Shown piece after piece: positions 3,164 through 19,186 of a stretch of DNA of 19,186 nt. Below the pieces are notes generated by a model that did no database searches, was not told the origin of the DNA, and saw only the letters and a program-made list of their open reading frames with translations. The translations under genes and the position numbers were made by a program. Source of the stretch: a virus; UHGV virus genome UHGV-1604764; one strand, given 5' to 3'. Position 1 is the stretch's first letter. Each line of letters starts with the position of its first letter.

Positions 3164-4404
3164 TGTTCTTTTCGGGATTATTTCAACGAAAAAGTGACGC
3201 ACCGGTGACCACGCCAGCAGAGCTGGCGGATGCTATCGGTTTGTCCTACGACACCTATACCGGAAAGCAGATCAGCAGCCAGCGGGCCATGCGACTGACG
3301 GCGGTTTTTTCCTGTGTCAGGGTGCTGGCGGAGTCGGTCGGGATGTTGCCCTGCAATCTGTATCACCTGAACGGCAGCCTGAAGCAGAGAGCCACCGGCG
3401 AACGTCTGCATAAACTGATCTCCACGCATCCCAATGGCTATATGACGCCGCAGGAGTTCTGGGAGCTGGTGGTCACCTGTCTGTGCCTGAGGGGAAACTT
3501 TTACGCCTACAAAGTGAAAGCATTTGGCGAAGTGGCTGAACTGCTGCCCGTCGATCCCGGCTGTGTGGTACCGAAGCTTAACAGTAGCTGGGAACCGGTC
3601 TATCAGGTCACATTCCCGGATGGCTCCACGGATGTACTGAGCCAGGAGGATATCTGGCATGTGCGTACGCTGACGCTGGACGGACTGGTGGGGCTGAATC
3701 CCATCGCCTATGCCCGCGAGGCAATATCGCTGGCGGCAGCGACCGAAGAGCACGGGGCCAGACTGTTCAGCAATGGCGCGGTGACGTCGGGTGTTTTGCG
3801 TACAGAGCAGACGCTGTCGGATCAGGCTTATGAGCGCCTGAAGAAAGATTTTGAGGAGCGTCACACCGGGCTTGGCAATGCTCACCGCCCGATGATCCTT
3901 GAGATGGGGCTGGACTGGAAGTCGATGGCGTTGAACGCAGAGGACAGCCAGTTCCTGGAAACCCGCAAGTTTCAGCTTGAAGAAATTTGTCGTCTGTTCC
4001 GTGTGCCATTGCACATGGTGCAGAACACCGATCGCGCCACCTTCAACAATATCGAAGAGCTGGGGCTCGGATTTATCAACTATTCACTGGTGCCGTATCT
4101 GACCCGCATTGAGCAGCGGATCAACACCGGACTGGTACGAAAAAGTAAGCAGGGTGTTTATTACGCCAAATTTAACGCCGGGGCGTTACTGCGCGGGGAT
4201 ATGAAGTCCCGTTTTGAAGCCTACGCCACCGGGATTAACTGGGGAATTTACTCTCCCAATGACTGCCGCGACCTGGAAGATATGAATCCGCGTCCCGGTG
4301 GTGATGTCTATCTCACACCGATGAACATGACCACGAAACCCTCCGATGGCAGTAAAGCCGGTAAGCAGAAGGATAACGCCAATGCAGACGAAACAACGTC
4401 TTGA
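3163..4404 (+). CDS. Portal protein (HK97 family-like)
   Basis: 413 aa. GTG start with GGAGG 6 nt upstream. Size and position (after TerL, before protease and capsid) and overall sequence character fit HK97-type portals. Confidence 0.88.
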   Translation: MFFSGLFQRKSDAPVTTPAELADAIGLSYDTYTGKQISSQRAMRLTAVFSCVRVLAESVGMLPCNLYHLNGSLKQRATGERLHKLISTHPNGYMTPQEFWELVVTCLCLRGNFYAYKVKAFGEVAELLPVDPGCVVPKLNSSWEPVYQVTFPDGSTDVLSQEDIWHVRTLTLDGLVGLNPIAYAREAISLAAATEEHGARLFSNGAVTSGVLRTEQTLSDQAYERLKKDFEERHTGLGNAHRPMILEMGLDWKSMALNAEDSQFLETRKFQLEEICRLFRVPLHMVQNTDRATFNNIEELGLGFINYSLVPYLTRIEQRINTGLVRKSKQGVYYAKFNAGALLRGDMKSRFEAYATGINWGIYSPNDCRDLEDMNPRPGGDVYLTPMNMTTKPSDGSKAGKQKDNANADETTS

Positions 4405-5032
4405 TGTACCGCTGAGTCTGAAATCTGTCAGTGACTCCGGTGAGTTTGAAGGATATGGCTCCGTCTTTGGTGTAAAGGACAGTCACGATGATGTGGTGAT
4501 GTCCGGGGCATTTGCTGCGTCCCTGCGGGCGTGGAGTGACAGAAAAGCGTTACCTGCGCTGCTCTGGCAGCACCGCATGGATGAGCCCATCGGTGTTTAC
4601 ACCGAAATGAAGGAAGACGATGTCGGGCTTTACGTCAGGGGGCGGTTGCTCATTGATGATGATCCCCTGGCAAAACGCGCACATGCACACATGAAGGCCG
4701 GTTCGTTAACCGGCCTTTCTATTGGGTACGTCCTGAAGGACTGGGAATACGACCGGACGAAAGAAGCCTTTCTGCTGAAAGAAATCGACCTCTGGGAAGT
4801 CAGTCTGGTGACGTTTCCGTCTAACGACGAGGCGCGGATCAGCGACGTCAAGAACGCGCTGGCCCGCGGGGAAATCCCCGAACAGAAAAAAATCGAAAGA
4901 GTCCTGCGTGATGTCGGACTCTCCCGTACCCAGGCCAAAGCATTCATGGCCGGGGGCTATAGCGCACTGTCCCTGCGCGACGCTGAGGATGTGGGCTCTG
5001 CACTGAATGCACTGAAAAATCTGAACTTCTAA
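4382..5032 (+). CDS. Prohead maturation protease (HK97 family, S78/U35-like)
   Basis: Start set to internal ATG 4382 (GAAGGA upstream) rather than ORF-track 4346, which has no RBS. N-terminal GEFEGYGSVFGVKDSHDDVVMSGAF matches the HK97 prohead protease signature. Overlaps the portal 3' end. Confidence 0.85.
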   Translation: MQTKQRLDVPLSLKSVSDSGEFEGYGSVFGVKDSHDDVVMSGAFAASLRAWSDRKALPALLWQHRMDEPIGVYTEMKEDDVGLYVRGRLLIDDDPLAKRAHAHMKAGSLTGLSIGYVLKDWEYDRTKEAFLLKEIDLWEVSLVTFPSNDEARISDVKNALARGEIPEQKKIERVLRDVGLSRTQAKAFMAGGYSALSLRDAEDVGSALNALKNLNF

Positions 5033-5046
5033 TCAGGAGAAATACG

Positions 5047-6252
5047 ATGGCGGTTGATATTAAAGATGTCGAACAGGTCGCGCAGGAGCTGCAGCAGAAG
5101 TTTGACGACTTCAAAGCAAAGAACGACAAGCGCGTGGATGCGATTGAGCAGGAAAAAGGCAAGCTTGCCGGGCAGGTGGAAACCCTGAACGGGAAACTCA
5201 GCGAGCTGGAAAATCTCAAAAGCGACCTTGAAAAAGAGCTGCTTGAGCTGAAACGTCCGGCTGGTGGAGCGCAAAATAAACTGGCCACCGAGCATAAAGA
5301 GGCGTTTGTGGGCTTCCTGCGTAAAGGCCGTGAAGACGGTCTGCGCGATCTGGAGCGTAAGGCATTGCAGGTGGGTACCGATGAAGACGGTGGCTACGCC
5401 GTGCCGGAAGAACTGGATCGCAACATTCTTAACCTGCTGAAAGATGAAGTGGTGATGCGTCAGGAAGCCACGGTGATCACCGTTGGCGGTTCCGACTACA
5501 AAAAACTGGTGAATCTGGGCGGTACGGTTTCCGGATGGGTGGGGGAAACGGATACGCGATCCCAGACTGCCACCTCCAGACTGGAGCTGATTGAACCTCT
5601 CATGGGGGAAATTTACGGCAACCCGCAGGCTACCCAGAAAATGCTGGACGATGCCTTCTTCAACGTGGAGGCCTGGATCAACAGCGAGCTGGCAACCGAA
5701 TTTGCCGAACAGGAAGAAATTGCCTTTACCTCAGGCGATGGCACCAAGAAGCCGAAAGGGTTCCTGGCGTATGAATCCACTGATGAAACCGACAAGGTCC
5801 GGGCGTTCGGCAAACTTCAGCATATTGTATCCGGCGAAGCGACCGCGGTGACCGCAGACGCCATTATCAAACTGATTTACACGCTGCGTAAGGCACACCG
5901 CACTGGCGCGAAGTTCATGATGAACAACAACAGCCTGTTTGCCATCCGTCTGCTGAAAGACAGCGAGGGTAATTATCTGTGGCGTCCGGGGCTGGAGCTG
6001 GGGCAGCCGTCCTCTCTGGCGGGTTACGGTATCGCTGAAAACGAACAGATGCCGGATATCGCCGCTGATGCGAAAGCCATTGCATTTGGTAACTTCAAAC
6101 GGGGTTACACCATCGTTGACCGTATCGGCACCCGCATTCTGCGTGACCCGTACACCAATAAACCGTTTGTCGGTTTTTATACCACCAAACGCACCGGCGG
6201 CATGCTGGTCGATTCGCAGGCCATCAAACTGCTGAAGATTGCAGTGGCGTAA
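5047..6252 (+). CDS. Major capsid protein (HK97 fold) with N-terminal coiled-coil delta (scaffolding) domain
   Basis: 401 aa. AGGAG upstream of ATG 5047. N-terminal ~100 aa is heptad-rich/charged (QELQQKFDDFKAKNDKRVDAIEQEKGKLAGQVETLNGKLSELENLKSDLEKELLELKR). No separate scaffold gene is present. Confidence 0.9.
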   Translation: MAVDIKDVEQVAQELQQKFDDFKAKNDKRVDAIEQEKGKLAGQVETLNGKLSELENLKSDLEKELLELKRPAGGAQNKLATEHKEAFVGFLRKGREDGLRDLERKALQVGTDEDGGYAVPEELDRNILNLLKDEVVMRQEATVITVGGSDYKKLVNLGGTVSGWVGETDTRSQTATSRLELIEPLMGEIYGNPQATQKMLDDAFFNVEAWINSELATEFAEQEEIAFTSGDGTKKPKGFLAYESTDETDKVRAFGKLQHIVSGEATAVTADAIIKLIYTLRKAHRTGAKFMMNNNSLFAIRLLKDSEGNYLWRPGLELGQPSSLAGYGIAENEQMPDIAADAKAIAFGNFKRGYTIVDRIGTRILRDPYTNKPFVGFYTTKRTGGMLVDSQAIKLLKIAVA

Positions 6253-6504: not shown

Positions 6505-6828
6505 ATGCTTCTGACAATGGAAGAGATTAAAGCCCAACTCCGGCTGGATGAGGATTTCGATGCTGATGACCGCCATCTGCAACTGCTGGCCTGTGCGGCG
6601 CAAAAGCGGACGGAAACGTATCTGAACCGGAAGCTCTATGCACCGGATGAAACCATTCCGGACAGCGATCCGGACGGGCTGCACCTGCCGGATGATATTC
6701 GTCTGGGGATGCTGATGCTTATCAGCCATTTTTACGAAAATCGCTCGTCGGTTACAGACGTTGAGAAAATGGAGTTGCCAATGAGCTTTAACTGGCTTGT
6801 CGGCCCGTACAGGTATTTCCCGCAATGA
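6505..6828 (+). CDS. Head-tail connector protein (gp6-like)
   Basis: 107 aa. N-terminal MLLTMEEIKAQLRLDEDFDADD is the characteristic start of gp6-like connector proteins. AGAGGG RBS. Confidence 0.75.
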   Translation: MLLTMEEIKAQLRLDEDFDADDRHLQLLACAAQKRTETYLNRKLYAPDETIPDSDPDGLHLPDDIRLGMLMLISHFYENRSSVTDVEKMELPMSFNWLVGPYRYFPQ

Positions 6829-7716: not shown

Positions 7717-8273
7717 AACTGACGCCTGTTATTGCTGCACTGCGTGCCCGTTGTCCGTATTTTGAAAACCGGGTTGCAGGCGCGGCCCAGTTCAAAAATC
7801 TGCCGGAGGTCGGAAAGCTGAAACTCCCGGCGGCATATGTTGTACCGGGTGATGATTCTCCGGGAGAAAACAAAAGCCAGACCGACTACTGGCAGGAGCT
7901 GAAAGAGGGCTTCTCCGTGGTTGTCATACTGAGTAACGGGCGTGATGAGCGCGGTCAGTTTGCTTCGTATGATGTGGTGGACGATGTCCGGCAGATGCTC
8001 TTTAAGGCCCTGCTGGGCTGGAACCCGGAAGCGTGCGGTAACCCGATTAACTATGACGGCGGCACGCTGCTGGATCTGAATCGTCATGAGCTGATTTATC
8101 AGTTCGATTTTTCGATCATCAGCGAGCTGACTGAAGACGATACCCGCCAGCAGGATGACCTGAACAGTCTGGATGAACTGCGAACGCTGGCGATTGATGT
8201 TGATTATCTCGATCCCGGTAACGGGCCTGACGGCGATATCGAACATCACACCGAAATAACCCTTCCTTCCTGA
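7713..8273 (+). CDS. Tail-associated protein, possibly tail terminator/completion (Mu gp37-like?)
   Basis: 186 aa. Start overlaps the upstream stop (ATGA). Placed between head-completion genes and the sheath. Family assignment is tentative. Confidence 0.5.
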   Translation: MKLTPVIAALRARCPYFENRVAGAAQFKNLPEVGKLKLPAAYVVPGDDSPGENKSQTDYWQELKEGFSVVVILSNGRDERGQFASYDVVDDVRQMLFKALLGWNPEACGNPINYDGGTLLDLNRHELIYQFDFSIISELTEDDTRQQDDLNSLDELRTLAIDVDYLDPGNGPDGDIEHHTEITLPS

Positions 8274-8281
8274 GAATCTTC

Positions 8282-8452
8282 ATGTTTGTGAAACCTGTTA
8301 AAGGGCGGTCAGTGCCTGACCCTGCCCGCGGTGACCTTTTGCCCGCCGAAGGGCGAAATGTTGACGAGAACAACTACTGGCTGCGCCGTGAAGCAGCGGG
8401 TGATATCCGGCGCGTGAATAAAAAGGTGAACACCGATGACGATAAGCTTTAA
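8282..8452 (+). CDS. DUF2635-like small protein (Mu gp38-like), not in the supplied ORF track
   Basis: 56-aa ORF read manually: MFVKPVKGRSVPDPARGDLLPAEGRNVDENNYWLRREAAGDIRRVNKKVNTDDDKL. The MFVKP...DP...LLP.EG...YW.RR...GD pattern and its position directly upstream of (and overlapping) the sheath gene match Mu-like tails. Confidence 0.55.
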   Translation: MFVKPVKGRSVPDPARGDLLPAEGRNVDENNYWLRREAAGDIRRVNKKVNTDDDKL

Positions 8453-9932
8453 CACCATTCCGTCGAATACGCTGGTTCCGCTGTTTTATGCGGAAATGGA
8501 TAACCAGGCGGCGAATACTGCACAGGACAGCGGAGCATCGCTGCTGATTGGTCATGCCAATAACGGTGCAGAGATTGTTGCCAACAGTCTGGTGCTGATG
8601 CCGTCGGCAGACTATGCACGCCAGATTTGTGGTGCGGGAAGTCAGCTGGCGCGTATGGTCGAGGCTTATCGCCAGACCGACCCGTTTGGTGAGCTGTATG
8701 TGATTGCCGTTCCTGAATCCACGGGCGCGGCGGCAACGGTTACGCTGACGGTGACCGGGGCGGCAACCGAAACCGGCACGGTTAATGTTTATGTGGGACG
8801 TACCCGCGTACAGGCACCGGTGACCAACGGCGATAACGTTGCGACGATTGCCAGCAGTATCAAAGATGCCATCAATGCCGTTCCGGCCCTGCCGTTTACG
8901 GCTTCATCTTCGGCAGGCGTGGTCACACTGACCGCGCGTCATAAGGGGCTTTGCGGGAATGAAATTCCTGTCAGCCTCAATTACTACGGGTTTGGTGGGG
9001 GCGAAGTGCTGCCAGCGGGCGTACAGATTGCCGTGGCGACGGGTACCGCCGGAACGGGCGCTCCGGTTCTCACCGGCGCGGTGGCTGCAATGGCGGATGA
9101 GCCGTTTGATTATATCGGCCTGCCGTTCAACGACACGGCCTCCGTTAACACGCTGGTGACCGAGATGAACGATACCAGCGGTCGCTGGAGCTATGCGCGT
9201 CAGCTGTATGGTCATGTGTATACGGCAAAGATCGGCACGCTGTCAGAACTGGTGACCGCAGGTGACCAGTTTAACCAGCAGCACATTACCCTGGCGGGAT
9301 ACGAAAAAGACACTCAGACGCCAGCCGACGAGCTGGCGGCAAGCCGTACCGCCCGCGCAGCGGTGTTTATTCGCAACGATCCGGCACGTCCCACGCAGAC
9401 CGGTGAGCTGGTGGGTATGCTGCCTGCGCCGAAGGGGAAACGGTTCACGATGACCGAGCAACAGACCCTGCTGTCTCATGGCGTGGCAACGGCGTATGTC
9501 GAAAGTGGGGTACTGCGCATTCAGCGTGATGTCACCACGTACAGGAAAAACGCTTACGGGGTTGCGGATAACAGCTACCTCGACAGTGAGACGCTGCATA
9601 CCAGCGCGTATGTACTGCGCAAACTGAAATCCGTCATTACCAGTAAGTACGGGCGTCACAAGCTTGCCAGTGACGGTACCCGCTTTGGTCCCGGTCAGGC
9701 GATTGTCACCCCGGCGGTGATCAAAGGGGAACTGCTGGCAACCTACCGTCAGCTCGAGCGTGCGGGGATCGTGGAAAACTACGAACTGTTTAAGCAGTAC
9801 CTGGTTGTGGAGCGTGATGCCAGCGATCCGAACCGCCTGAACACGCTGTTCCCGCCTGACTATGTTAACCAGTTGCGTGTCTTTGCCGTGGTTAACCAGT
9901 TCCGTCTTCAGTATTCAGAGGAGTCTGCATAA
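8436..9932 (+). CDS. Contractile tail sheath protein (Mu gpL-like)
   Basis: 498 aa. N-terminus MTISFNTIPSNTLVPLFYAEMDN is typical of Mu-type sheath proteins. Followed by the tube gene with TAATG overlap. Confidence 0.88.
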   Translation: MTISFNTIPSNTLVPLFYAEMDNQAANTAQDSGASLLIGHANNGAEIVANSLVLMPSADYARQICGAGSQLARMVEAYRQTDPFGELYVIAVPESTGAAATVTLTVTGAATETGTVNVYVGRTRVQAPVTNGDNVATIASSIKDAINAVPALPFTASSSAGVVTLTARHKGLCGNEIPVSLNYYGFGGGEVLPAGVQIAVATGTAGTGAPVLTGAVAAMADEPFDYIGLPFNDTASVNTLVTEMNDTSGRWSYARQLYGHVYTAKIGTLSELVTAGDQFNQQHITLAGYEKDTQTPADELAASRTARAAVFIRNDPARPTQTGELVGMLPAPKGKRFTMTEQQTLLSHGVATAYVESGVLRIQRDVTTYRKNAYGVADNSYLDSETLHTSAYVLRKLKSVITSKYGRHKLASDGTRFGPGQAIVTPAVIKGELLATYRQLERAGIVENYELFKQYLVVERDASDPNRLNTLFPPDYVNQLRVFAVVNQFRLQYSEESA

Positions 9933-10288
9933 TGGCCCGTATCGGGGGAACCTGTTATTTCAAAATTGACGGTCAGCAGCTATCGCTGACCGGCGGCATT
10001 GAGGTGCCCATGAACAAAACGGTTAACGATGACATCATCGGCCTGGACGGTTCAGTGGACCGCAAGGAAACTCACCGTGCACCTTATGTCAAAGGGACCT
10101 TCAAGGTGCCGAAGAATTTTCCGGTGAGCAAAATCACCTCGTCTGATGAGATGACCATCACTGCCGAGCTGGCGAACGGTCAGGTCTATGTACTGTCGTC
10201 TGCCTGGCTGCACGGCGAAGCGAACCATAATGCCGAAGAAGGCACGGTCGATCTTGAGTTCCACGGTGAAGAAGGGGATTACCAGTAA
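9932..10288 (+). CDS. Tail tube protein (Mu gpM-like)
   Basis: 118 aa, immediately after the sheath. Size and position are typical of contractile-tail tube proteins. Confidence 0.75.
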   Translation: MARIGGTCYFKIDGQQLSLTGGIEVPMNKTVNDDIIGLDGSVDRKETHRAPYVKGTFKVPKNFPVSKITSSDEMTITAELANGQVYVLSSAWLHGEANHNAEEGTVDLEFHGEEGDYQ

Positions 10289-10557
10289 TGAAAGAGCTTG
10301 AGTTAAAGAAACCGATTACCGCTCATGGCGAGACACTCTCCGTACTGGAGTTTGATGAGCCCACCGGGAAAGATGTCCGCGAGCTGGGATATCCCTACCA
10401 GATGAATCAGGATGAGTCCGTCAGACTTCTGGCGCATGTGGTATCGAAATACATCGTGCGGCTGGCGAAAGTGCCGCAAAGCTCTGTCGACCAGATGTCT
10501 CCGGCAGACCTGAATGCAGCGGCGTGGCTTGTGGCCGGTTTTTTCCTCCAGGCCTGA
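10288..10557 (+). CDS. Tail assembly chaperone, short form
   Basis: 89 aa between tube and tape measure. Ends at TGA 10555-10557 just after a T-run slippery site. Confidence 0.75.
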   Translation: MKELELKKPITAHGETLSVLEFDEPTGKDVRELGYPYQMNQDESVRLLAHVVSKYIVRLAKVPQSSVDQMSPADLNAAAWLVAGFFLQA

Positions 10558-10706
10558 CGGCTGAATACCTCACTGATCGCTTCTTTGACTGCGCCAGTTA
10601 CTGGCGCATTAATCCCTTCGAATTGCTGAATATGCCGATCAGTGAAATTCCCTTGCTGGTCAGTCAGGCAAACAGGATAGAGCAGGAGAAACGCACACAT
10701 GGCTGA
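10288..10706 (+). CDS. Tail assembly chaperone, -1 frameshift-extended form (predicted)
   Basis: Heptamer T_TTT_TTC at 10539-10545 in the zero frame. A -1 slip joins ...VAGFF to PPGLTAEYL... in the overlapping ORF (10524-10706), which ends 7 nt into the tape measure gene. Confidence 0.65.
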
Positions 10707-12654
10707 ATTTGAGCTTAAGGCGTTGATCACCGGTGTCGACAGGCTTTCTCCCGCGCTGTCGAAAATGCAAAAGAAAATCCGGGGATTTAAACGCCAGGCG
10801 GAAGAAGCGTCACAGGGTGGGCTGGCGCTTGGTGGCGGACTGGCAGCGGGTCTGACGCTTTCCCTGAAATCTTATGCCGATCAGGAAAACGCCGCCACCG
10901 GGCTGAAAGTCGCCATGATGGATGCGAACGGCGAGGTTGGAAAGAGCTTTCAGGACATCAATAAACTGGCTATTGGCCTGGGTAACCAGCTACCCGGTAC
11001 AACGGCTGATTTCCAGAACATGATGCAGATGCTGGTGCGTCAGGGGATCCCGGCAGAAAACATTCTTGGTGGTGTGGGTAAAGCGACAGCTTATCTTGCG
11101 GTACAACTGAAAAAAACACCGGAAGCGGCTGCTGAGTTTGCTGCAAAGATGCAGGATGCTACCGGAACGGCGTCAGAAGACATGATGGGGCTGTTCGACA
11201 CTATCCAGAAGGCGTTTTATCTGGGCGTTGACGATACCAACATGTTGTCCTTCTTCACTAAAACCAGTTCTGTTCTGAAGATGGTGAACAAGGACGGTCT
11301 TCAGGCTGCACAGAGCCTTGCCCCCATCAGCGTCATGATGGATCAGATGGGGATGAACGGGGAGTCGGCAGGTAATGCCCTGCGAAAAGTTATCCAGTCC
11401 GGATTAAGCGTTAAGAAAATCAGGGACGTCAATAAAGTCATGGCCCGCCAGAGACTCGGGGTACAGCTCGATTTTACTGACGGCAAAGGAAGTTTTGGCG
11501 GTCTTGATAACATGTTCAGGCAACTGGCAAAGCTGCGAAAACTGACCGACGTTAAGCGAACAGGTGTACTTAAGGCAATATTTGGTGATGATGCCGAAAC
11601 CCTTCAGGTGGTCAATGCACTAATCGATAAAGGAAAGGATGGCTACGATCAGATCCAGCAGAAGATGAATAAACAGGCCAGCCTGAATAAACGTGTTCAG
11701 GCACAGCTTGGTACGCTGTCCAACCTGTGGGAGGCAATGACGGGGACCGCAACTAACGGCCTTGCGGCTATTGGCGGCGCATTTTCTGGTGACGCCAAAA
11801 ATATCACGCAATGGCTGGGGGAGTTGGGGGAAAAATTCACGAAGTTTGCGGATGAAAATCCCCGGGTTATTCGCGGCGTCGTCGGGCTTGCTGCCGGTCT
11901 TGCGATTCTGAAACTGGGATTGATGGGCGTGGGCAGTGCCATCAGTATCGTCAGCAGGATCATGTCGATGACGCCGATTGGCATGATTGCGACGGCGATT
12001 GCCTTGGCTGCGGGATTAATTATCACTAACTGGGATGTTGTTGGACCTTATTTCAAGAAGCTCTGGGAAACCATTGGTCCTTATTTTGAGGCTGGCTGGG
12101 AACTTCTGAAGAAGGTTTTTGCCTGGTCGCCGCTGGGGATGGTAATCAATAACTGGGGACCGGTTGTTAAGTGGTTTCAGGATATGTGGGACAAGCTGAA
12201 GCCAATTATTGAGTGGTTTACCGACAGTTCCGGTGACACGGTCGATGCCATTAACTCGGCGCAGTGGGGCGCGGGTGCTTATGATGCTTATGGGACGGGA
12301 ATACCGCCACGGGGATACACTCCTTATCCGGCGCAGTCAAACAACGCCTCCGGTGACACGGTCGATGCCATTAACTCTGCGCAGTGGGGCGCGGGTGCTT
12401 ATGATGCTTATGGGACGGGAATACCGGCGCGGGGATACACACCTTATCCGGCGGTAGATCCGGCTCAGTCAAACAACGCCTCCGATGCTACAGGCCCGAA
12501 TCCCTTCATGATTAACAAAGCTTCTGCGCCAAAAGTTGACGGTGAGATCAAGGTCTCTTTTGTGAATTCGCCTCCGGGTATGCGGGTTATGGAAACGCGA
12601 TCCAGCGGTTTTGATATAAATCACGATGTTGGCTATACGCATATTGGCAGATGA
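10699..12654 (+). CDS. Tail tape measure protein
   Basis: 651 aa. Ala/Gly/Gln-rich helical N-terminal region, hydrophobic segment (VIRGVVGLAAGLAILKLGLMGVGSAISIV...IATAIALAAGLIITNW), located after the chaperone/frameshift pair. Contains an internal tandem duplication. Confidence 0.85.
   Translation: MAEFELKALITGVDRLSPALSKMQKKIRGFKRQAEEASQGGLALGGGLAAGLTLSLKSYADQENAATGLKVAMMDANGEVGKSFQDINKLAIGLGNQLPGTTADFQNMMQMLVRQGIPAENILGGVGKATAYLAVQLKKTPEAAAEFAAKMQDATGTASEDMMGLFDTIQKAFYLGVDDTNMLSFFTKTSSVLKMVNKDGLQAAQSLAPISVMMDQMGMNGESAGNALRKVIQSGLSVKKIRDVNKVMARQRLGVQLDFTDGKGSFGGLDNMFRQLAKLRKLTDVKRTGVLKAIFGDDAETLQVVNALIDKGKDGYDQIQQKMNKQASLNKRVQAQLGTLSNLWEAMTGTATNGLAAIGGAFSGDAKNITQWLGELGEKFTKFADENPRVIRGVVGLAAGLAILKLGLMGVGSAISIVSRIMSMTPIGMIATAIALAAGLIITNWDVVGPYFKKLWETIGPYFEAGWELLKKVFAWSPLGMVINNWGPVVKWFQDMWDKLKPIIEWFTDSSGDTVDAINSAQWGAGAYDAYGTGIPPRGYTPYPAQSNNASGDTVDAINSAQWGAGAYDAYGTGIPARGYTPYPAVDPAQSNNASDATGPNPFMINKASAPKVDGEIKVSFVNSPPGMRVMETRSSGFDINHDVGYTHIGR
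12229..12480 (+). repeat. In-frame tandem duplication inside the tape measure gene (120-nt unit, then 132-nt unit)
   Basis: Copy 1 at 12229-12348 and copy 2 at 12349-12480 differ by 4 substitutions and a 12-nt in-frame insertion. Encodes SGDTVDAINSAQWGAGAYDAYGTGIP(P/A)RGYTPYPA(VDPA)QSNNA twice. Confidence 0.9.
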
Positions 12655-12670
12655 CGGAACCAGATATAAT
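12644..12670 (+). promoter_or_regulatory. Candidate sigma70-type promoter for the moron gene
   Basis: -35-like TTGGCA (12644-12649), 15-nt spacer, perfect -10 TATAAT (12665-12670). Lies in the last codons of the tape measure gene, about 37 nt upstream of the moron start codon. Confidence 0.45.
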
Positions 12671-12706
12671 TTGTCTTTAAGTTTGTTATCAACTGAAGGG
12701 AAATCT

Positions 12707-13084
12707 ATGGGTCTGTTACATGCCATTATAGGTAATGCCGGTGAAATTAATGCATCAGATGCACAACAGGAATTAGGGGCTGTTTTAGGTGAGGGAGAAA
12801 ATGTCGAACTTGCCTATAAACTCATTCGTGACCAAATTATTCTGACTAACAGAAGGTTAATTTTTATTGATAAGCAGGGTGTCACAGGGAAAAAAGTAGA
12901 GTATCGTTCGATTCCTTATAAATCTGTGACAAACTTTTCTATTGAAACCGCCGGGCATCTTGATCTTGATGCTGAAATGAAGATATGGATTTCTGGTATT
13001 GCAGAACCGATAAAAAAACAGTTCAGTAAAGGAGCAAACATTTATAAATTGCAGGCTCATCTGGCTCAAAAAATAGCAGGGTAA
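12707..13084 (+). CDS. Moron-encoded soluble protein, bacterial PH-like domain (bPH_1/DUF1696-like), function unknown
   Basis: 125 aa from ATG 12707 (AAGGGA RBS). The ORF-track start at 12626 lies inside the tape measure gene and is rejected. About 40% GC against mid-50s% in flanking genes. Motifs LTNRRLIFIDKQGVTGKK, SIPY, ETAGHLDLDAEMKIWISG recall the bPH_1 family (from memory). Confidence 0.6.
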   Translation: MGLLHAIIGNAGEINASDAQQELGAVLGEGENVELAYKLIRDQIILTNRRLIFIDKQGVTGKKVEYRSIPYKSVTNFSIETAGHLDLDAEMKIWISGIAEPIKKQFSKGANIYKLQAHLAQKIAG

Positions 13085-13110
13085 ACCTTACATTAATTTA
13101 TGTCTTTCAT

Positions 13111-13132
13111 GCCCACTTCGGTGGGCTTTTTT
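13111..13132 (+). terminator. Rho-independent terminator downstream of the moron gene
   Basis: GCCCAC-TTCG-GTGGGC (6-bp G/C stem, TTCG tetraloop) followed directly by TTTTTT, 27 nt after the moron stop and 16 nt before the next start codon. Confidence 0.7.
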
Positions 13133-13147
13133 ATATCCGGAGTTTAT

Positions 13148-14476
13148 ATGACGTGGAAAGACAGGCTTCAGGACGCGTCATTTCGCGGTGTGCCGTTTAA
13201 GGTTGAAGAAGAAAGTGCGGGAACAGGTCGCCGTGTGGAAACACACGAATATCCGAACCGCGACAAACCCTATACCGAAGATCTGGGAAAAGTCACTTTC
13301 CGCCCGTCCATCACGGCTTATGTGGTGGGCGATGACTGCTTTGACCAGCGCGATCGCCTGATTGACGCGCTGAATAAACCCGGTCCCGGCACGCTTGTCC
13401 ACCCGACTTACGGTGAGCTGAAAGTCTGTGTTGACGGAGAGGTTCGGGTCAGCACATCGAAAAGTGAAGGGCGTATTGTCCGCTTTGACCTGAAGTTTGT
13501 CGAAGCGGGAGAACTCTCTTACCCCACATCAGGTGCGGCGACGGCGCAGACGCTGATGTCATCCTGTTCTGCACTGGATGACTGCATCAGTGACAGCTTC
13601 AGCGGTTTCAGTATCGATGGTGTGGCGGATTTCGTGCAGAACGACGTTATCGGTAATGCCAGCATAATGCTGGGGTATGTTTCTGATGCGATGAAAGTGG
13701 TGGATTCTGCCGTATCGGATGCCGCCAGGCTGTTGCAGGGGGATATCTCGGTACTTCTGCCGCCGCCATCGTCAGGCAAAAATTTCGTTGAGCAGGTGCA
13801 GAAAATGTGGCGTACCGGGAAACGCCTTTATGGTAACGCCAGCGACCTGGTCACCATGATCAAAACGCTTTCCGGTGTCAGCCTCGGCAGCGATCTGCAA
13901 CCGCGCGGCGTCTGGAAAACGGACAGTAAAACCACCGCCACGGCGACGCAGCAGCGTAACGTGGTTGCCAGCACCCTTCGTGCGACCGCAATCAGCGAAG
14001 CGGCGTATGCCGTCACCCGATTGCCTGCGCCAACAACTTCCGCGGTGATGCAGAATGCCGCAGTGGGGCAGTCAACAACTTCCGCGCAGAGCACCGGCTG
14101 GCCTTCCGTCACGCATCCGGCACTGAACAATGCACCGGCGGTGAAAAACACGGTTGACCTGCCAACGTGGGAAGAACTGACTGACATTCGCGACACACTG
14201 AATACGGCAATTGATAAGGAGTTGTCCCGTACAACCAGTGATGCGCTGTTTCTGGCGCTGCGCCGGGTGAAAGCAGATCTGAATGCGGATATCAACACGC
14301 GCCTTGAACAGTCTGCTCGGATCATTCAGCGCACGCCGGATGAGGTCTTACCCGCGCTGGTGCTGGCGGCGACCTGGTTTGATAACGCGGCGCGTGACGC
14401 GGACATTATCCGGCGTAATGCCATTACGCATCCCGGCTTTGTGCCGGTGATCCCTCTGAAGGTGCCAGTGCAATGA
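13148..14476 (+). CDS. DNA circulation protein (Mu gp43-like)
   Basis: Start set to ATG 13148 (GGAG 5 nt upstream). ORF-track 13100 would read through the terminator hairpin. N-terminus MTWKDRLQDASFRGVPFKV...GRRVETHEYPNRDKPYTEDLG...GPGTLVHPTYG matches the DNA-circulation N-terminal domain. Confidence 0.8.
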   Translation: MTWKDRLQDASFRGVPFKVEEESAGTGRRVETHEYPNRDKPYTEDLGKVTFRPSITAYVVGDDCFDQRDRLIDALNKPGPGTLVHPTYGELKVCVDGEVRVSTSKSEGRIVRFDLKFVEAGELSYPTSGAATAQTLMSSCSALDDCISDSFSGFSIDGVADFVQNDVIGNASIMLGYVSDAMKVVDSAVSDAARLLQGDISVLLPPPSSGKNFVEQVQKMWRTGKRLYGNASDLVTMIKTLSGVSLGSDLQPRGVWKTDSKTTATATQQRNVVASTLRATAISEAAYAVTRLPAPTTSAVMQNAAVGQSTTSAQSTGWPSVTHPALNNAPAVKNTVDLPTWEELTDIRDTLNTAIDKELSRTTSDALFLALRRVKADLNADINTRLEQSARIIQRTPDEVLPALVLAATWFDNAARDADIIRRNAITHPGFVPVIPLKVPVQ

Positions 14477-15552
14477 ACGATAACGTCACGCTACGGGTAA
14501 ATGGCCGGGAGTGGAATGGCTGGACATCGGTGCGCATCGGTGCCGGTATTGAACGGCTGGCGCGGGATTTCAGCGTGGAGATCACCCGCCAGTGGCCGGG
14601 AGATGAGGGTATCACCACGCTTCAGCCGCGCATTAAAAATGGTTCAAAAGTGGAAGTGCTGATTGGTGATGAGCTGGTGATCACCGGCTGGGTGGAGGCG
14701 ACCCCCGTTCGTTACGATGCCCGTTCGGTCAGCACCGGTATTGCCGGACGTAGTCTGACGGCTGACCTGATTGACTGTGCAGCCGAACCGACACAGTTTA
14801 ACGGACGCTCGCTGGTGCAGATTGCGCAGGCGCTTGCTGCGCCTTTCGGCATTGAGGTGGTGAACAGCGATGCGCCGTCGGGTGTTATTCCGGATGTCCA
14901 GCCTGATCACGGTGAAACGGTGATCGAGGTGATCAACAAAATACTCGGTCAGCAGCAGGCGCTGGCTTATGACGACCCGCACGGCAGGCTGGTGATTGGT
15001 GGTATTGGCTCAACGCGGGCACATACCGCGCTGGTACTCGGGGAAAACATCCTTTCCTGTGATACGGAGAAGAGTATCCGGGAGCGGTTTTCAGTTTACC
15101 AGGTGGCGGGGCAGCGTGCCGGAAACGACGATGATTTCGGTGAGGCCACCACCACCGCGCTGCGGGCCCGCACAGAGGACGCATTTATTGCCCGTTACCG
15201 TCCGATGTATATCAGGCAGACAGGGCAGGCTACGGGGGCAGGCTGTATTGCCCGTGCGGACTTTGAAGCCCGACAACGGGCGGCGCGGACGGATGAAACC
15301 ACCTATGTGGTGCAGGGCTGGCGACAGGGTAACGGTACGCTGTGGCAGCCCAACCAGCGGGTGATTGTCTTTGATCCGGTCTGTGGTTTCGACAATACCG
15401 AACTGCTTGTTTCGGAAGTCACGTTTACTCAGGACCAGAACGGCACCCTGACGGAAATCCGTGTCGGCCCACCTGATGCTTATCTGCCTGAACCCGAAGC
15501 CCCCGGCGCGCGGAAAAAGAAAAAAGCCAGAGTACAGGAGGAGCCGTTCTGA
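14473..15552 (+). CDS. Baseplate hub protein (Mu gp44 / P2 gpD-like)
   Basis: 359 aa. ATGA overlap with the upstream gene. Position and size match the Mu-like baseplate hub. Confidence 0.7.
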   Translation: MNDNVTLRVNGREWNGWTSVRIGAGIERLARDFSVEITRQWPGDEGITTLQPRIKNGSKVEVLIGDELVITGWVEATPVRYDARSVSTGIAGRSLTADLIDCAAEPTQFNGRSLVQIAQALAAPFGIEVVNSDAPSGVIPDVQPDHGETVIEVINKILGQQQALAYDDPHGRLVIGGIGSTRAHTALVLGENILSCDTEKSIRERFSVYQVAGQRAGNDDDFGEATTTALRARTEDAFIARYRPMYIRQTGQATGAGCIARADFEARQRAARTDETTYVVQGWRQGNGTLWQPNQRVIVFDPVCGFDNTELLVSEVTFTQDQNGTLTEIRVGPPDAYLPEPEAPGARKKKKARVQEEPF

Positions 15553-16100
15553 TGAGGACGATTGAAGCCATGCAGCGACAACTCCTCGGCCTGATTGGGC
15601 GGGCCGTGGTGAAAAGCATCAGTGCCGCCACGAAATGTCAGACCGTGGATGTGTCCCTGATTGCCGGTGAACCCAAAGCCGGGGTTGAACATCTTGAACC
15701 CTACGGTTTTACCGCAAGGGCAAACAGCGGTGCGGAAGCGGTGGTGTTGTTTCCGGATGGCGACCGTTCTCATGCGGTGGTTGTTACGGTGTCGGACCGT
15801 CGCTACCGCCTGAAAGGGCTGCAAACGGGGGAGGTGGCTGTCTATGACGATCAGGGGCAGTCCGTGACGCTGACCCGGGAGGGGATCGTGGTGGACGGTG
15901 CAGGTAAAACGATCACGTTTCGCAATGCGCCCAGAGCACGCTTTGAAATGGACCTGGAAGTGACCGGACAGGTGAAAGACCTGTGCGACTCCGGCGGCAC
16001 CACCATGTCAGCGATGCGGCTTGCCTATAACGGGCATCGTCACAGAGAGAACGGTCAGGGCAGTAACACCGACAAACCTGATAAAGCGATGGAGGCATGA
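15552..16100 (+). CDS. Baseplate spike/assembly protein V (Mu gp45-like)
   Basis: 182 aa. Start overlaps the upstream stop. Size and position match gpV-type spike proteins. Confidence 0.7.
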   Translation: MRTIEAMQRQLLGLIGRAVVKSISAATKCQTVDVSLIAGEPKAGVEHLEPYGFTARANSGAEAVVLFPDGDRSHAVVVTVSDRRYRLKGLQTGEVAVYDDQGQSVTLTREGIVVDGAGKTITFRNAPRARFEMDLEVTGQVKDLCDSGGTTMSAMRLAYNGHRHRENGQGSNTDKPDKAMEA

Positions 16101-16525
16101 TGGAACTGTGGCTGACGGTGAACGGTAAACGCACCTGCGCCAGCGCACCGCTGGATCCGCTGCCCCGCGCCGTGGTGATTTCCCTGTTCACCTGGCGGCG
16201 GGCGGAGCCTGATGACAACGCCGACGTCCCGATGGGATGGTGGGGGGATACCTGGCCTGCGGTACAGAATGACCGTTACGGCTCCCGACTGTGGCTGCTT
16301 CAGCGCAGCAAACTGACCAATCAGCTGGTGCAGACGGTAAGGGGGTATATCCGCGAATGCCTGCAATGGATGATTGATGACGGCGTGGTGTCCCGTATTG
16401 ATCTGGATATCCGCCGCACCGGGATTAATGAGCTTGGTAACAGTATCACTCTCTGGCGTCGTGACGGACCGGTAATGATTTCTTTTGATGATCTGTGGAG
16501 TGCGATAACGCATGGCGGACAGTGA
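16097..16525 (+). CDS. Baseplate protein (Mu gp46-like / gpW-gp25-like)
   Basis: 142 aa. ATGA overlap. Conserved position between V-like and J-like baseplate genes. Confidence 0.65.
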   Translation: MMELWLTVNGKRTCASAPLDPLPRAVVISLFTWRRAEPDDNADVPMGWWGDTWPAVQNDRYGSRLWLLQRSKLTNQLVQTVRGYIRECLQWMIDDGVVSRIDLDIRRTGINELGNSITLWRRDGPVMISFDDLWSAITHGGQ

Positions 16526-17570
16526 ATTTCAGCGCCCGACGCTGGCAGAAAATATCAGTATGCTCCGTAACGATTTATTCGCCAGGCTGGACGTCAGCGA
16601 CACGCTCCGGCGCATGGATGAAGACGTGCGGGCAAAGGTGTATGCGGCGGCGCTGCATACGGTTTACGGGTACATCGATTATCTGGCAATGAATATGCTG
16701 CCTGACCTGTGCGATGAGTCCTGGCTGGCGCGACATGCTGCGATGAAACGGTGTCCGCGCAAGGGGGCCACGGCTGCCAGCGGGTATATGCGCTGGGAAG
16801 GTGTCAGCGATGGCCTGAAGGTGACTGCCGGGAGCGTGATTCAGCGCGATGACCTGGTTCAGTACACGGCAACTGCCGATGCAACCAGCTCCGGTGGTGT
16901 CCTGCGTGTGCCGATCACTTGCTCAACTACAGGCGCGGTCGGTAACGCTGACGACGGTACGGCATTAATCCTGGTCACGCCGGTGAATGGTCTGCCGTCT
17001 TCCGGTGTTGCAGATACCCTGACTGGCGGATTCGATACTGAAGATCTGGAAACGTGGCGCGCCCGCGTCATTGAGCGGTATTACTGGACGCCGCAGGGCG
17101 GGGCTGACGGGGACTATGTCGTCTGGGCTAAAGAAGTGCCCGGCATTACCCGCGCATGGACATACCGTCACTGGATGGGAACGGGAACTGTCGGTGTGAT
17201 GATTGCCAGCAGTGACCTGATTAATCCCATTCCGGAAGAATCAACGGAAACGGCGGCAAGACAACATATCGTGCCACTGGCCCCGGTGGCAGGCTCTGAT
17301 TTGTATGTGTTCAGGCCGGTGGCACATACGGTGGATTTTCATATCCGCGTGACGCCGGACACACCGGAAATACGGGCTGCCATCACCGCGGAGTTGCGTT
17401 CGTTCCTGCTGCGTGATGGTTATCCGCAGGGAGAACTGAAGGTATCGCGTATCAGTGAGGCGATTTCCGGTGCGAACGGGGAATACAGCCATCAGTTGTT
17501 TGCACCGGCAGACAATATCTCCATTGCAAAAAATGAACTGGCGGTACTGGGGACGATTTCATGGACGTGA
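16512..17570 (+). CDS. Baseplate J-like protein (Mu gp47-like)
   Basis: 352 aa. Overlapping start. Size and position match baseplate J family proteins. Confidence 0.75.
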
Positions 17571-18145
17571 CAAACGATGATTACATCCGTCTGTTGTCGG
17601 CACTGTTGCCCCCCGGTCCGGCGTGGTCAGCCAGCGATCCGGCGATTGCCGGTGCGGCACCGTCATTAACCCGCGTTCATCAGCGTGCGGATGCCCTGAT
17701 GCGGGAGCTGGATCCGCGCACCACCACCGAACTGATAAATCGCTGGGAGCGTCTGTGCGGCCTGCCGGATGAATGTATTCCCGCAGGGACACAGACCCTT
17801 CGCCAGCGTCAGCAACGACTGGATGCGAAGGTTAACCTGGCGGGCGGCATCAATGAGGATTTTTACCTTGCACAGCTTGCTGCCCTGGGCAGACCAGACG
17901 CCACCATCACGCGATACGACAAAAGCACGTTCACCTGCTCATCGGCCTGTACTGACGCGGTGAATGCGCCGGAATGGCGGTATTACTGGCAGGTCAACAT
18001 GCCAGCCGCCACCAACACCACCTGGATGACATGTGGCGATCCCTGTGATTCCGCACTGCGTATCTGGGGCGACACCGTTGTCGAGTGTGTGCTTAACAAA
18101 CTCTGCCCGTCGCATACCTACGTAATTTTTAAATATCCGGAGTAA
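17561..18145 (+). CDS. Baseplate/tail protein (Mu gp48-like, DUF2313/YmfQ-like; P2 gpI analogue)
   Basis: 194 aa. Overlaps the J-like gene end. Immediately precedes the tail fibre gene, as in Mu-like tail modules. Confidence 0.65.
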
Positions 18146-18148
18146 TCC

Positions 18149-18772
18149 ATGCATCGTATAGACACGAAAACCGCGCAGAAGGATAAGTTCGGCGCGGGTA
18201 AGAACGGTTTTACCCGTGGTAATCCCCAGACTGGTACGCCTGCCACCGATCTGGATGATGACTACTTTGACATGTTGCAGGAGGAGCTTTGCAGCGTTGT
18301 GGAGGCATCCGGTGCCAGCCTGGAGAAGGGGCGGCATGACCAGTTGCTTACCGCACTTCGCGCACTGCTGTTAAGCCGCAATAATCCGTTTGGTGATATC
18401 AAATCGGACGGCACGGTACCAACGGCTCTCGAAAACCTTGGTTTGGGAGAAGCGGCAAAACGGAATGTGGGAACAGGGGAAAATCAGATACCTGATATGT
18501 CAGCTTATTCATCAGGATCTGGCTGGCAAAAATTGCCTGATGGTTCAATTGAACAGTGGGGAAGAATTAATTTCCCGAATAACGCCGCGGCGGTATCTAC
18601 AAATGTGACTTTCACCATTCCTTTTACGCAGGAGCCAGACGTAGTGATTGTATATGACGGCGGTTTTGGTGGTGGGAATATGTGGGGCGCAACTAACTGG
18701 ACGAAAACAGGTTTCGTTGCTCATTGTAACTATGGCTTTGAAGGTGGAGCCTTCTACGCGAAAGGGCGTTAA
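18149..18772 (+). CDS. Tail fibre protein (short; constant N-terminal part plus variable C-terminal part)
   Basis: 207 aa. GGAG RBS. Contains a Din-invertase-type crossover site at about codon 93. GC content drops after that point. Confidence 0.75.
18426..18451. other. Gin/Hin/Pin/Cin-type (Din family) invertase crossover site inside the tail fibre gene
   Basis: CTCTCGAAAACC-TT-GGTTTGGGAGAA: two imperfect 12-bp inverted half-sites (9/12 self-complementary) around a central TT. Matches the hixL sequence as I recall it at 19 of 26 positions. Confidence 0.65.
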
Positions 18773-18774
18773 TT

Positions 18775-19186
18775 ATGAAATATTTGTATGTTGATAATCT
18801 GGCGTACCCTTATGCCCTCCAGTCTGTTTACGCTGCAAAAGGCCAATGGCCCGAAGGTAAAGGCGTGGATATAGACGAAGCTATTTTCAGGGAATATTTC
18901 CATGATACGCCGCCTGACGGTAAGTACAGAATTACCGGAGACGATGGAATGCCAGCATGGGCAGATGTTCCACCGCCAACACGTGAAGAACAAATTGCAT
19001 CAGCCGCAACTAAAAAGCAGCAATTGATTAATCAGGCCAACGATTATATGAACAGTAGACAATGGGCTGGTAAAGCGGCTATTGGTCGTCTGAAAGGTGA
19101 GGAACTGGCGCAATATAATTTGTGGCTGGATTATCTGGACGCACTGGAGCTGGTCGATACTTCCAGTGCACCAGATATTGAATGGC
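18775..19186 (+). CDS. Tail fibre assembly protein (Tfa family), 3'-truncated by window end
   Basis: ATG 18775, 2 nt after the fibre stop. Open to the end of the window (137 codons, checked manually for stops). MKYLYVDN... N-terminus and ...DTSSAPDIEW tail are typical of Tfa chaperones. Confidence 0.75.
   Translation, partial: MKYLYVDNLAYPYALQSVYAAKGQWPEGKGVDIDEAIFREYFHDTPPDGKYRITGDDGMPAWADVPPPTREEQIASAATKKQQLINQANDYMNSRQWAGKAAIGRLKGEELAQYNLWLDYLDALELVDTSSAPDIEW

Follow-up and report, generated by a model that had tools for sequence, protein, structure and literature searches.

Structural genes and the tail fibre gene

The window, as the whole 19,186-nt stretch of virus genome UHGV-1604764 analysed here is called, contained a phage structural module; sheath, tube, tape measure and Mu-type baseplate proteins were recognized by Pfam in the proxy loci, and the long ORFs in the upstream part of the window presumably encoded the terminase and head proteins. 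Its best relatives were the SfV/SfI/SfII/SfIV-like phages and the e14 remnant of E. coli K-12, and in related E. coli genomes the element was integrated beside dusA. Two minor features were observed in the tail region. The gene for a 651-aa tape measure protein (nt 10699-12654) contained a 120-bp tandem duplication at nt 12229-12453 (1.9 copies, 96% match). The DNA-circularization gene (nt 13100-14476) had short in-frame duplications or deletions among relatives around nt 14031-14086, with predicted products of 442, 456, 458 and 470 aa, and a 56-nt stretch of it matched twice in L005 and L007 by BLAST.

At the right end of the window, all on the plus strand, a gene for a Mu gp48/YmfQ-type baseplate protein (nt 17561-18145; Pfam Phage_Mu_Gp48, E=9.4e-27) was located directly upstream of the tail fibre gene (nt 18149-18772), an ORF of 207 codons; the same order of baseplate gene and fibre gene is found in K-12 e14 (ymfQ-stfP) and in SfV. 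The fibre gene was composed of two parts. Codons 1-96, up to the core dinucleotide of the site described below (nt 18149-18437), formed the constant part, Sc, recognized by the reading frame and its likeness to e14 StfP, whereas the remainder (nt 18440-18772), a low-GC block, formed the variable part, Sv, in the expressed position, encoding a Gp53-like_C receptor-binding domain at residues 128-197 (Pfam PF21882, E=4.7e-8). The gene paired with this Sv, encoding a Tfa protein (nt 18775-19186; Pfam Caudo_TAP, E=6.7e-29), was represented by 137 of its 146 codons before the window ended; the complete 146-aa ORF was present in contig L003 (nt 10627-11067). Homology to e14 DNA stopped at nt 18461 and homology to SfV at nt 18510, both within the fibre gene.

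Crossover site within the fibre gene

A 26-mer, CTCTCGAAAACCTTGGTTTGGGAGAA, was located on the plus strand at nt 18426-18451, within codons 93-101 of the fibre ORF (base 18426 lies in codon 93), where it encoded the peptide A-L-E-N-L-G-L-G-E. It possessed a 12-2-12 layout, in which two imperfect inverted 12-bp half-sites (..AAACC / GGTTT..), CTCTCGAAAACC and GGTTTGGGAGAA, flank a TT core at nt 18438-18439, and was designated the left crossover site, equivalent to pixL. The GC content fell from 0.54-0.60 on the left of the site to 0.43-0.48 on its right. An earlier note made from the sequence alone had described a 26-bp site of Gin/Hin/Pin/Cin architecture at about codon 93 of a 207-aa fibre gene, coinciding with a drop in GC content, and this observation was confirmed in position, layout, reading frame and base composition.

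When as many as 3 mismatches were allowed, the 26-mer was matched once in the window and in none of 200 dinucleotide-preserving shuffles, and its core, AAACCNNGGTTT, occurred once in the window versus 0.02 occurrences expected. It aligned position for position with Mu gixL (TTATCCAAAACC-TC-GGTTTACAGGAA) and gixR (TTCCTGTAAACC-GA-GGTTTTGGATAA) and with the two cix sites of the P1-like phage JL22 (CAATCCTAAACC-TT-GGTTTAAGAGAA and TTCTCTTAAACC-AA-GGTATTGGATAA), these sequences being taken directly from the reference records. Short palindromes do arise randomly, and nothing else would favour a chance palindrome having no role in recombination; this explanation is virtually impossible and was ruled out by the shuffles, the expected frequency of the core and the identity of all 26 bases with the e14 site, for which inversion has been demonstrated experimentally (PMC12529663).

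The tail module of Shigella phage SfV (as well as those of SfI, SfII and SfIV) was 97% identical to the window up to nt 18510, and SfV orf21 (L012, nt 5866-5891) carried the identical 26-mer in a fixed fibre gene, with no partner site, alternative cassette or invertase gene; relatives of SfV retain the site in a like setting, and SfV serves as the negative control. In SfV, orf21 is followed by the O-antigen genes gtrV/B/A and then by int and xis. Possession of the 26-mer is thus by itself no proof of a switch, and the downstream context is decisive.

Organization of the DNA beyond the window end

The window stopped 1.05 kb short of the partner site, and the downstream elements were read from proxy contigs sharing 99-99.9% identity with it. 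The exact 207-aa fibre protein was encoded on at least 24 contigs, including L003 to L009, and L003 was 99.93% identical to the last 11 kb of the window (nt 8149-19186). Following the position of the window end, L003-L009 carried, in order, the last codons of tfa (plus strand), a convergent 200-aa tfa gene (minus), a fibre C-terminal fragment (minus), the partner site and a serine recombinase gene (plus). The fragment, Sv’, was 161-165 aa long and silent, having neither a fibre N-terminus nor a promoter. The partner site in L004-L009, TTCTCCCAAACCAACGTTTATGAAAA, was an inverted counterpart of the left site, TTCTCCCAAACC-AA-CGTTTATGAAAA; the inner half-sites and cores of the two formed exact inverted repeats. 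The distance between the sites, core to core, was 1810 bp in L004, and the invertase gene started 55 bp past the partner site. Projected onto the coordinates of the window, the partner site would lie at about nt 20236-20261 and the invertase gene at about nt 20316-20873. A matching layout was observed in L002 and in L001, the latter 96.7% identical to the window, so that the order tfa(+), tfa(-), Sv’(-), site, invertase(+) was common to L001-L009 and e14.

What the earlier note had predicted for the DNA to the right was found in these proxies: the segment continued past nt 19186, an inverted second site lay just outside, about 1.05 kb beyond the window end, and oppositely oriented alternative fibre and Tfa genes were present between the two. 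The invertase gene, likewise predicted just outside, was there on the plus strand, but in L003-L009 it was a frameshifted pseudogene (see below). The interpretation of the site as the left edge of an invertible fibre segment, predicted to switch host range, is supported; autonomous switching, in contrast, is doubtful because the adjacent invertase gene is frameshifted in the lineage of the window.

Two breaks in the assemblies fell within this region. The window end, nt 19186, corresponded to nt 11038 of L003, one base short of the convergent tfa gene. It lies within the invertible segment, at a cassette boundary, and is possibly a contig break at the repeated tfa gene. L003 retained the inner half-site and core of the partner site, directly followed by a 10-N scaffold gap (nt 12103-12112, about nt 20251-20260 of the window) over the outer half: TTCTCCCAAACCAA|NNNNNNNNNN. 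Such a position of the gap, exactly where crossover would take place, is consistent with reads of mixed orientation or with repeat boundaries in them. The invertible segment may explain both breaks.

Similarity to the e14 P segment

The left site of e14 in stfP/ycfK (L011, nt 4779-4804) was identical to the window site at 26 of 26 bases, and its right site, before pinE (L011, nt 6606-6631), was identical at 26 of 26 to the partner site of L004-L009. The inverted repeats reported for e14, TTGGTTTGGGAGAAGG and CCTTCTCCCAAACCAA, flank the 1797-bp P segment, and its inversion was shown experimentally (PMC12529663, 2025); both orientations coexist in MG1655-derived cultures (PMC4272514). Of the 16 repeat bases published, the window matched 15, the exception being the final one, which falls in its different Sv. 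The segment in L004 was of similar length (1810 bp versus 1797 bp; PMC12529663), and the gene order in K-12 MG1655, ymfQ, stfP(ycfK), tfaP, tfaE(-), stfE(-), pinE, was the same as that in the proxies. Sc shared about 98% protein identity with that of e14, and residues 1-101 of the fibre protein were nearly identical to StfP, the similarity being lost right after ALENLGLGE; the silent fragment was related to e14 StfE in a like manner, with a different middle portion of Sv’. With identical sites, the same order of genes and an almost identical Sc, the 26-mer is very probably the left-hand site for recombination in a P segment of the e14 type. This invertible segment of about 1.8 kb, of the Gin/Cin/Pin/Hin class, closes the tail module in an SfV/e14-like myovirus prophage.

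Differences from e14 were also apparent. The Sv and Sv’ cassettes were other alleles than those of e14; the element of the window has its head and tail module complete, in contrast to the remnant e14; relatives of the window were integrated at dusA, whereas e14 is at icd; and the invertase gene, sharing 82-83% DNA identity with pinE, was frameshifted in the lineage of the window.

The system is thus an already known one, a member of the e14-type P segments with nothing that departs from the known kind. The e14 P, Mu G and P1 C segments have been known since the 1980s and the site is base for base that of e14, which leaves little value as a discovery. For annotation, the assignment accounts for the short, mosaic fibre gene and for the drop in GC content at codon 93.

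Comparison with other invertible segments

The Mu G segment, inverted by Gin, has the same layout, in which the baseplate genes gp45-48 are followed by S (Sc|Sv)-U, U’-Sv’ and the invertase gene, and the gix sites are likewise of 26 bp with AAACC-NN-GGTTT around a 2-bp core. They differ from the sites here in the core (TC/GA versus TT/AA) and in the outer bases of the half-sites. Sc is longer in Mu (about 170 codons, versus 96 here), as is the segment (about 3 kb, versus 1.8 kb), and the fibre protein was weakly similar to that of the window (33% over 73 residues). The C segment of P1, inverted by Cin and read here from JL22, shares the TT/AA core and has closely similar half-sites, but cin is located upstream, on the other side of the segment, the fibre protein is of about 1000 aa and the virion is unrelated. 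The Salmonella H segment is inverted by Hin, a recombinase of the same family that uses two 26-bp sites and a Fis enhancer (PMC3798978); it flips a promoter for flagellin genes, in contrast to the fusion of coding sequences in a phage fibre gene predicted here.

Invertase gene and its frameshift

Inversion systems of the Gin/Hin/Cin/Pin class have, beside the segment, a gene for a small serine invertase of about 185-193 aa, with a Resolvase catalytic domain and HTH_7 at its C-terminus. In L001, the 96.7% relative, the invertase gene was intact and encoded a 185-aa protein possessing the Resolvase and HTH_7 domains. This protein matched the crystal structure of Gin (3UJ3, E=3.7e-92), shared about 79% identity with P1-like Cin, and was matched by the DNA-binding domain of Hin at residues 139-183. 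The first 90 nt of the gene were highly conserved with Mu gin and pinE, in a region that also encodes conserved protein. Two G-N13-C Fis-like 15-mers were found at nt 22 and 71 of the gene, at the same positions as in Mu gin and in the same stretch, which is also coding; they are suggestive of a Fis-dependent recombinational enhancer.

All seven of the exact-fibre contigs analysed (L003-L009) had a 1-nt deletion, GGG to GG, after about codon 126 of the invertase gene, reducing the product to 142 aa with the Resolvase domain only and no HTH_7 DNA-binding domain; the allele was annotated as “frameshifted” by PGAP. The same deletion was present in six further loci (L017, L026, L044, L049, L064 and L065). 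Its occurrence in 13 independent assemblies, complete genomes included, ruled out sequencing error as the cause. Rescue by programmed ribosomal frameshifting is unlikely, as inspection by eye failed to reveal a slippery heptamer (X XXY YYZ) from the deletion to the stop codon. Elsewhere in the family, differently truncated invertase ORFs of 31, 42, 63 or 104 aa were observed beside an intact right site (L018, L020, L024, L027, L033, L037, L039, L047, L051 and L059), and decay of the invertase gene in cis seems to be common in this prophage family.

Predicted inversion and orientations among relatives

Invertases of this family require two 26-bp sites and a Fis-bound enhancer within the invertase gene (PMC3798978, citing Kahmann 1985), and act by synapsis at the enhancer, double-strand cleavage at the 2-bp core, a 180-degree subunit rotation and religation (PMC3798978). 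By analogy with this work on Hin and Gin, an invertase dimer would bind each 26-bp site, and the sites would be brought together in a synapse with the enhancer, located at the 5′ end of the invertase gene and occupied by Fis. Cleavage of all four strands at the TT/AA core would then be followed by a 180-degree rotation of one subunit pair, and religation would leave the segment flipped. In the orientation of the window, residues 1-96 of the fibre protein are fused to the gp53-like C-terminus, followed by the 146-aa Tfa. Inversion would give the same N-terminus, still in frame, a C-terminus with a Collar domain, and the 200-aa Tfa would come next. When L004 was flipped in silico between the core dinucleotides, both sites were regenerated and Sc continued in frame into the silent fragment, to yield a 249-aa fibre protein followed by the 200-aa tfa gene; the alternative C-terminus carried a phage tail Collar domain. 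Such a swap of C-terminus and chaperone would alter receptor specificity. The two fibre forms may be expected to differ in adsorption specificity, as judged from the biology of Mu and P1 and from their C-terminal domains, Gp53-like_C in one and Collar in the other, which are unrelated.

Complete E. coli genomes contained the flipped arrangement in a single uninterrupted alignment, the best match having 97.8% identity over 1988 nt; at 80% coverage or more it was present in 467 genomes, versus 16 for the arrangement of the window. Alleles of Sv have roughly their first 50 nt in common, so that 42-mers spanning the junction were unspecific for the Sv of the window in IMG/VR, and all loci were classified by BLAST of the individual components. 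By this classification, L001-L009 and L065 had the orientation of the window, L013, L014, L026 and L064 had the flipped one, and L017 was flipped with the window’s own Sv silent, adjoining the invertase gene. Two candidates, H51/L013 and H52/L014, were rejected as exact flips of the window segment: they shared Sv’-tfa’ (96% and 92%), but their silent Sv was another gp53-like allele, so that they are mosaic relatives. Both orientations therefore occur at the population level, among related prophages in different strains.

Both orientations beside one dead invertase allele

The dead invertase allele was 100% identical over 558 nt in L017, L026, L064 and L065, and the adjacent DUF4145 gene was 100% identical over 696 nt in L026, L064 and L065. 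Beside this allele, the gp53-type Sv was in the expressed position in L065 and in the lineage of the window, whereas in L064 and L026 the Collar type was expressed and the gp53 type was silent; in L017, the Sv (99.4-99.6%) and tfa (99.8%) of the window were silent, on a different phage backbone. Thus, inversion and the exchange of cassettes seem to have gone on beside a clonal invertase allele that is itself dead. This is most simply explained by invertases of other prophages, which probably act in trans on the segment, and homologous recombination in the conserved flanks may, as an alternative, have produced the segment differences around the dead allele. As the segment’s own invertase has no DNA-binding domain, switching at present would need a Pin-family invertase supplied in trans. 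PinQ, PinR and PinE have each been reported to invert the e14 segment in trans (PMC12529663), and the pattern of a clonal dead allele fits such flipping of e14 by the invertases of other cryptic prophages. It is the presence of a clonal frameshifted invertase beside both orientations and varied cassettes in different strains that lends the locus a modest interest.

An alternative is that the segment, of Pin-type descent, is a locked relic in which inversion no longer takes place, its invertase being dead, and in which the 26-mer is kept as a conserved coding stretch of the fibre gene. The 142-aa invertase without HTH_7 in every contig of the lineage, annotated as frameshifted, is in agreement with this, as is the retention of the identical 26-mer by SfV without any switch; the single orientation in 24 of 24 exact-fibre contigs agrees as well, though it is to be expected from their retrieval by that very protein. 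Against it are the perfect conservation of the partner site in L004-L009, the occurrence of the same dead allele beside both orientations and different cassettes, and the trans inversion of the e14 segment by Pin-family invertases of other prophages (PMC12529663), and a permanently locked segment is rather doubtful.

The flipped state of L017 contained an ORF of 123 aa (nt 575-946), adjoining the invertase gene, in which MPFARYFCIFINVGLGE was fused to the window’s gp53-like C-terminus. This ORF corresponds to StfE2, a chimera of e14 for which a block of phage T2 adsorption has been reported (PMC12529663), and the short protein could, as reported for e14, be an anti-phage adsorption blocker. 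Returning to action in trans, we tentatively raise the possibility of an orphaned switch, with its own invertase dead and its cassette still being flipped or exchanged by the Pin-family invertases of co-resident prophages, the flipped state yielding the StfE2-like adsorption blocker; the choice of fibre would then be set by the other prophages of the host.

Possible exchange of fibre cassettes at the site

Several alignments pointed to the site as a boundary of mosaicism. Those with P2-like phages began at query positions 867-873, that with vB_EcoM-689R6 extended to query position 892, and the one with e14 ended at nt 18461 of the window. Moreover, in L017 the Sv and tfa cassette of the window, together with the dead invertase allele, was attached to another Sc and another baseplate region, and L010 linked an Sv’ through a hybrid site to the long fibre gene of a different phage. 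These findings would be expected if the site were a hotspot of module exchange, serving chiefly as a breakpoint for swaps of the fibre C-terminus and Tfa between phages and not as a reversible switch within one genome. This alternative is unlikely as a replacement for the invertible segment, since exchange is compatible with inversion and is to be expected, in the long term, as a by-product wherever an invertase site is present; in addition, L010 is a metagenome contig that could be an assembly chimera, and homologous recombination in conserved flanks would give an identical pattern. The assignment to an e14-type invertible segment was retained.

The junction in L010 (contig k119_11798, nt 12088-12553) consisted of a hybrid right site, TTCTCCCAAACCAAGGTATGCGAGAA, beyond which lay the constant region of the long fibre gene of another phage, in minus orientation and with no invertase gene; it arose either when prophages recombined at these sites or as a chimera during assembly. 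Duplicated parts were found in two relatives from IMG/VR: L031 carried Sc at nt 2564 and 4189, and L055 carried tfa’ at nt 3380 and 4852 with the invertase gene on the other side, at nt 1914. These arrangements suggest multi-cassette or rearranged versions of the segment.
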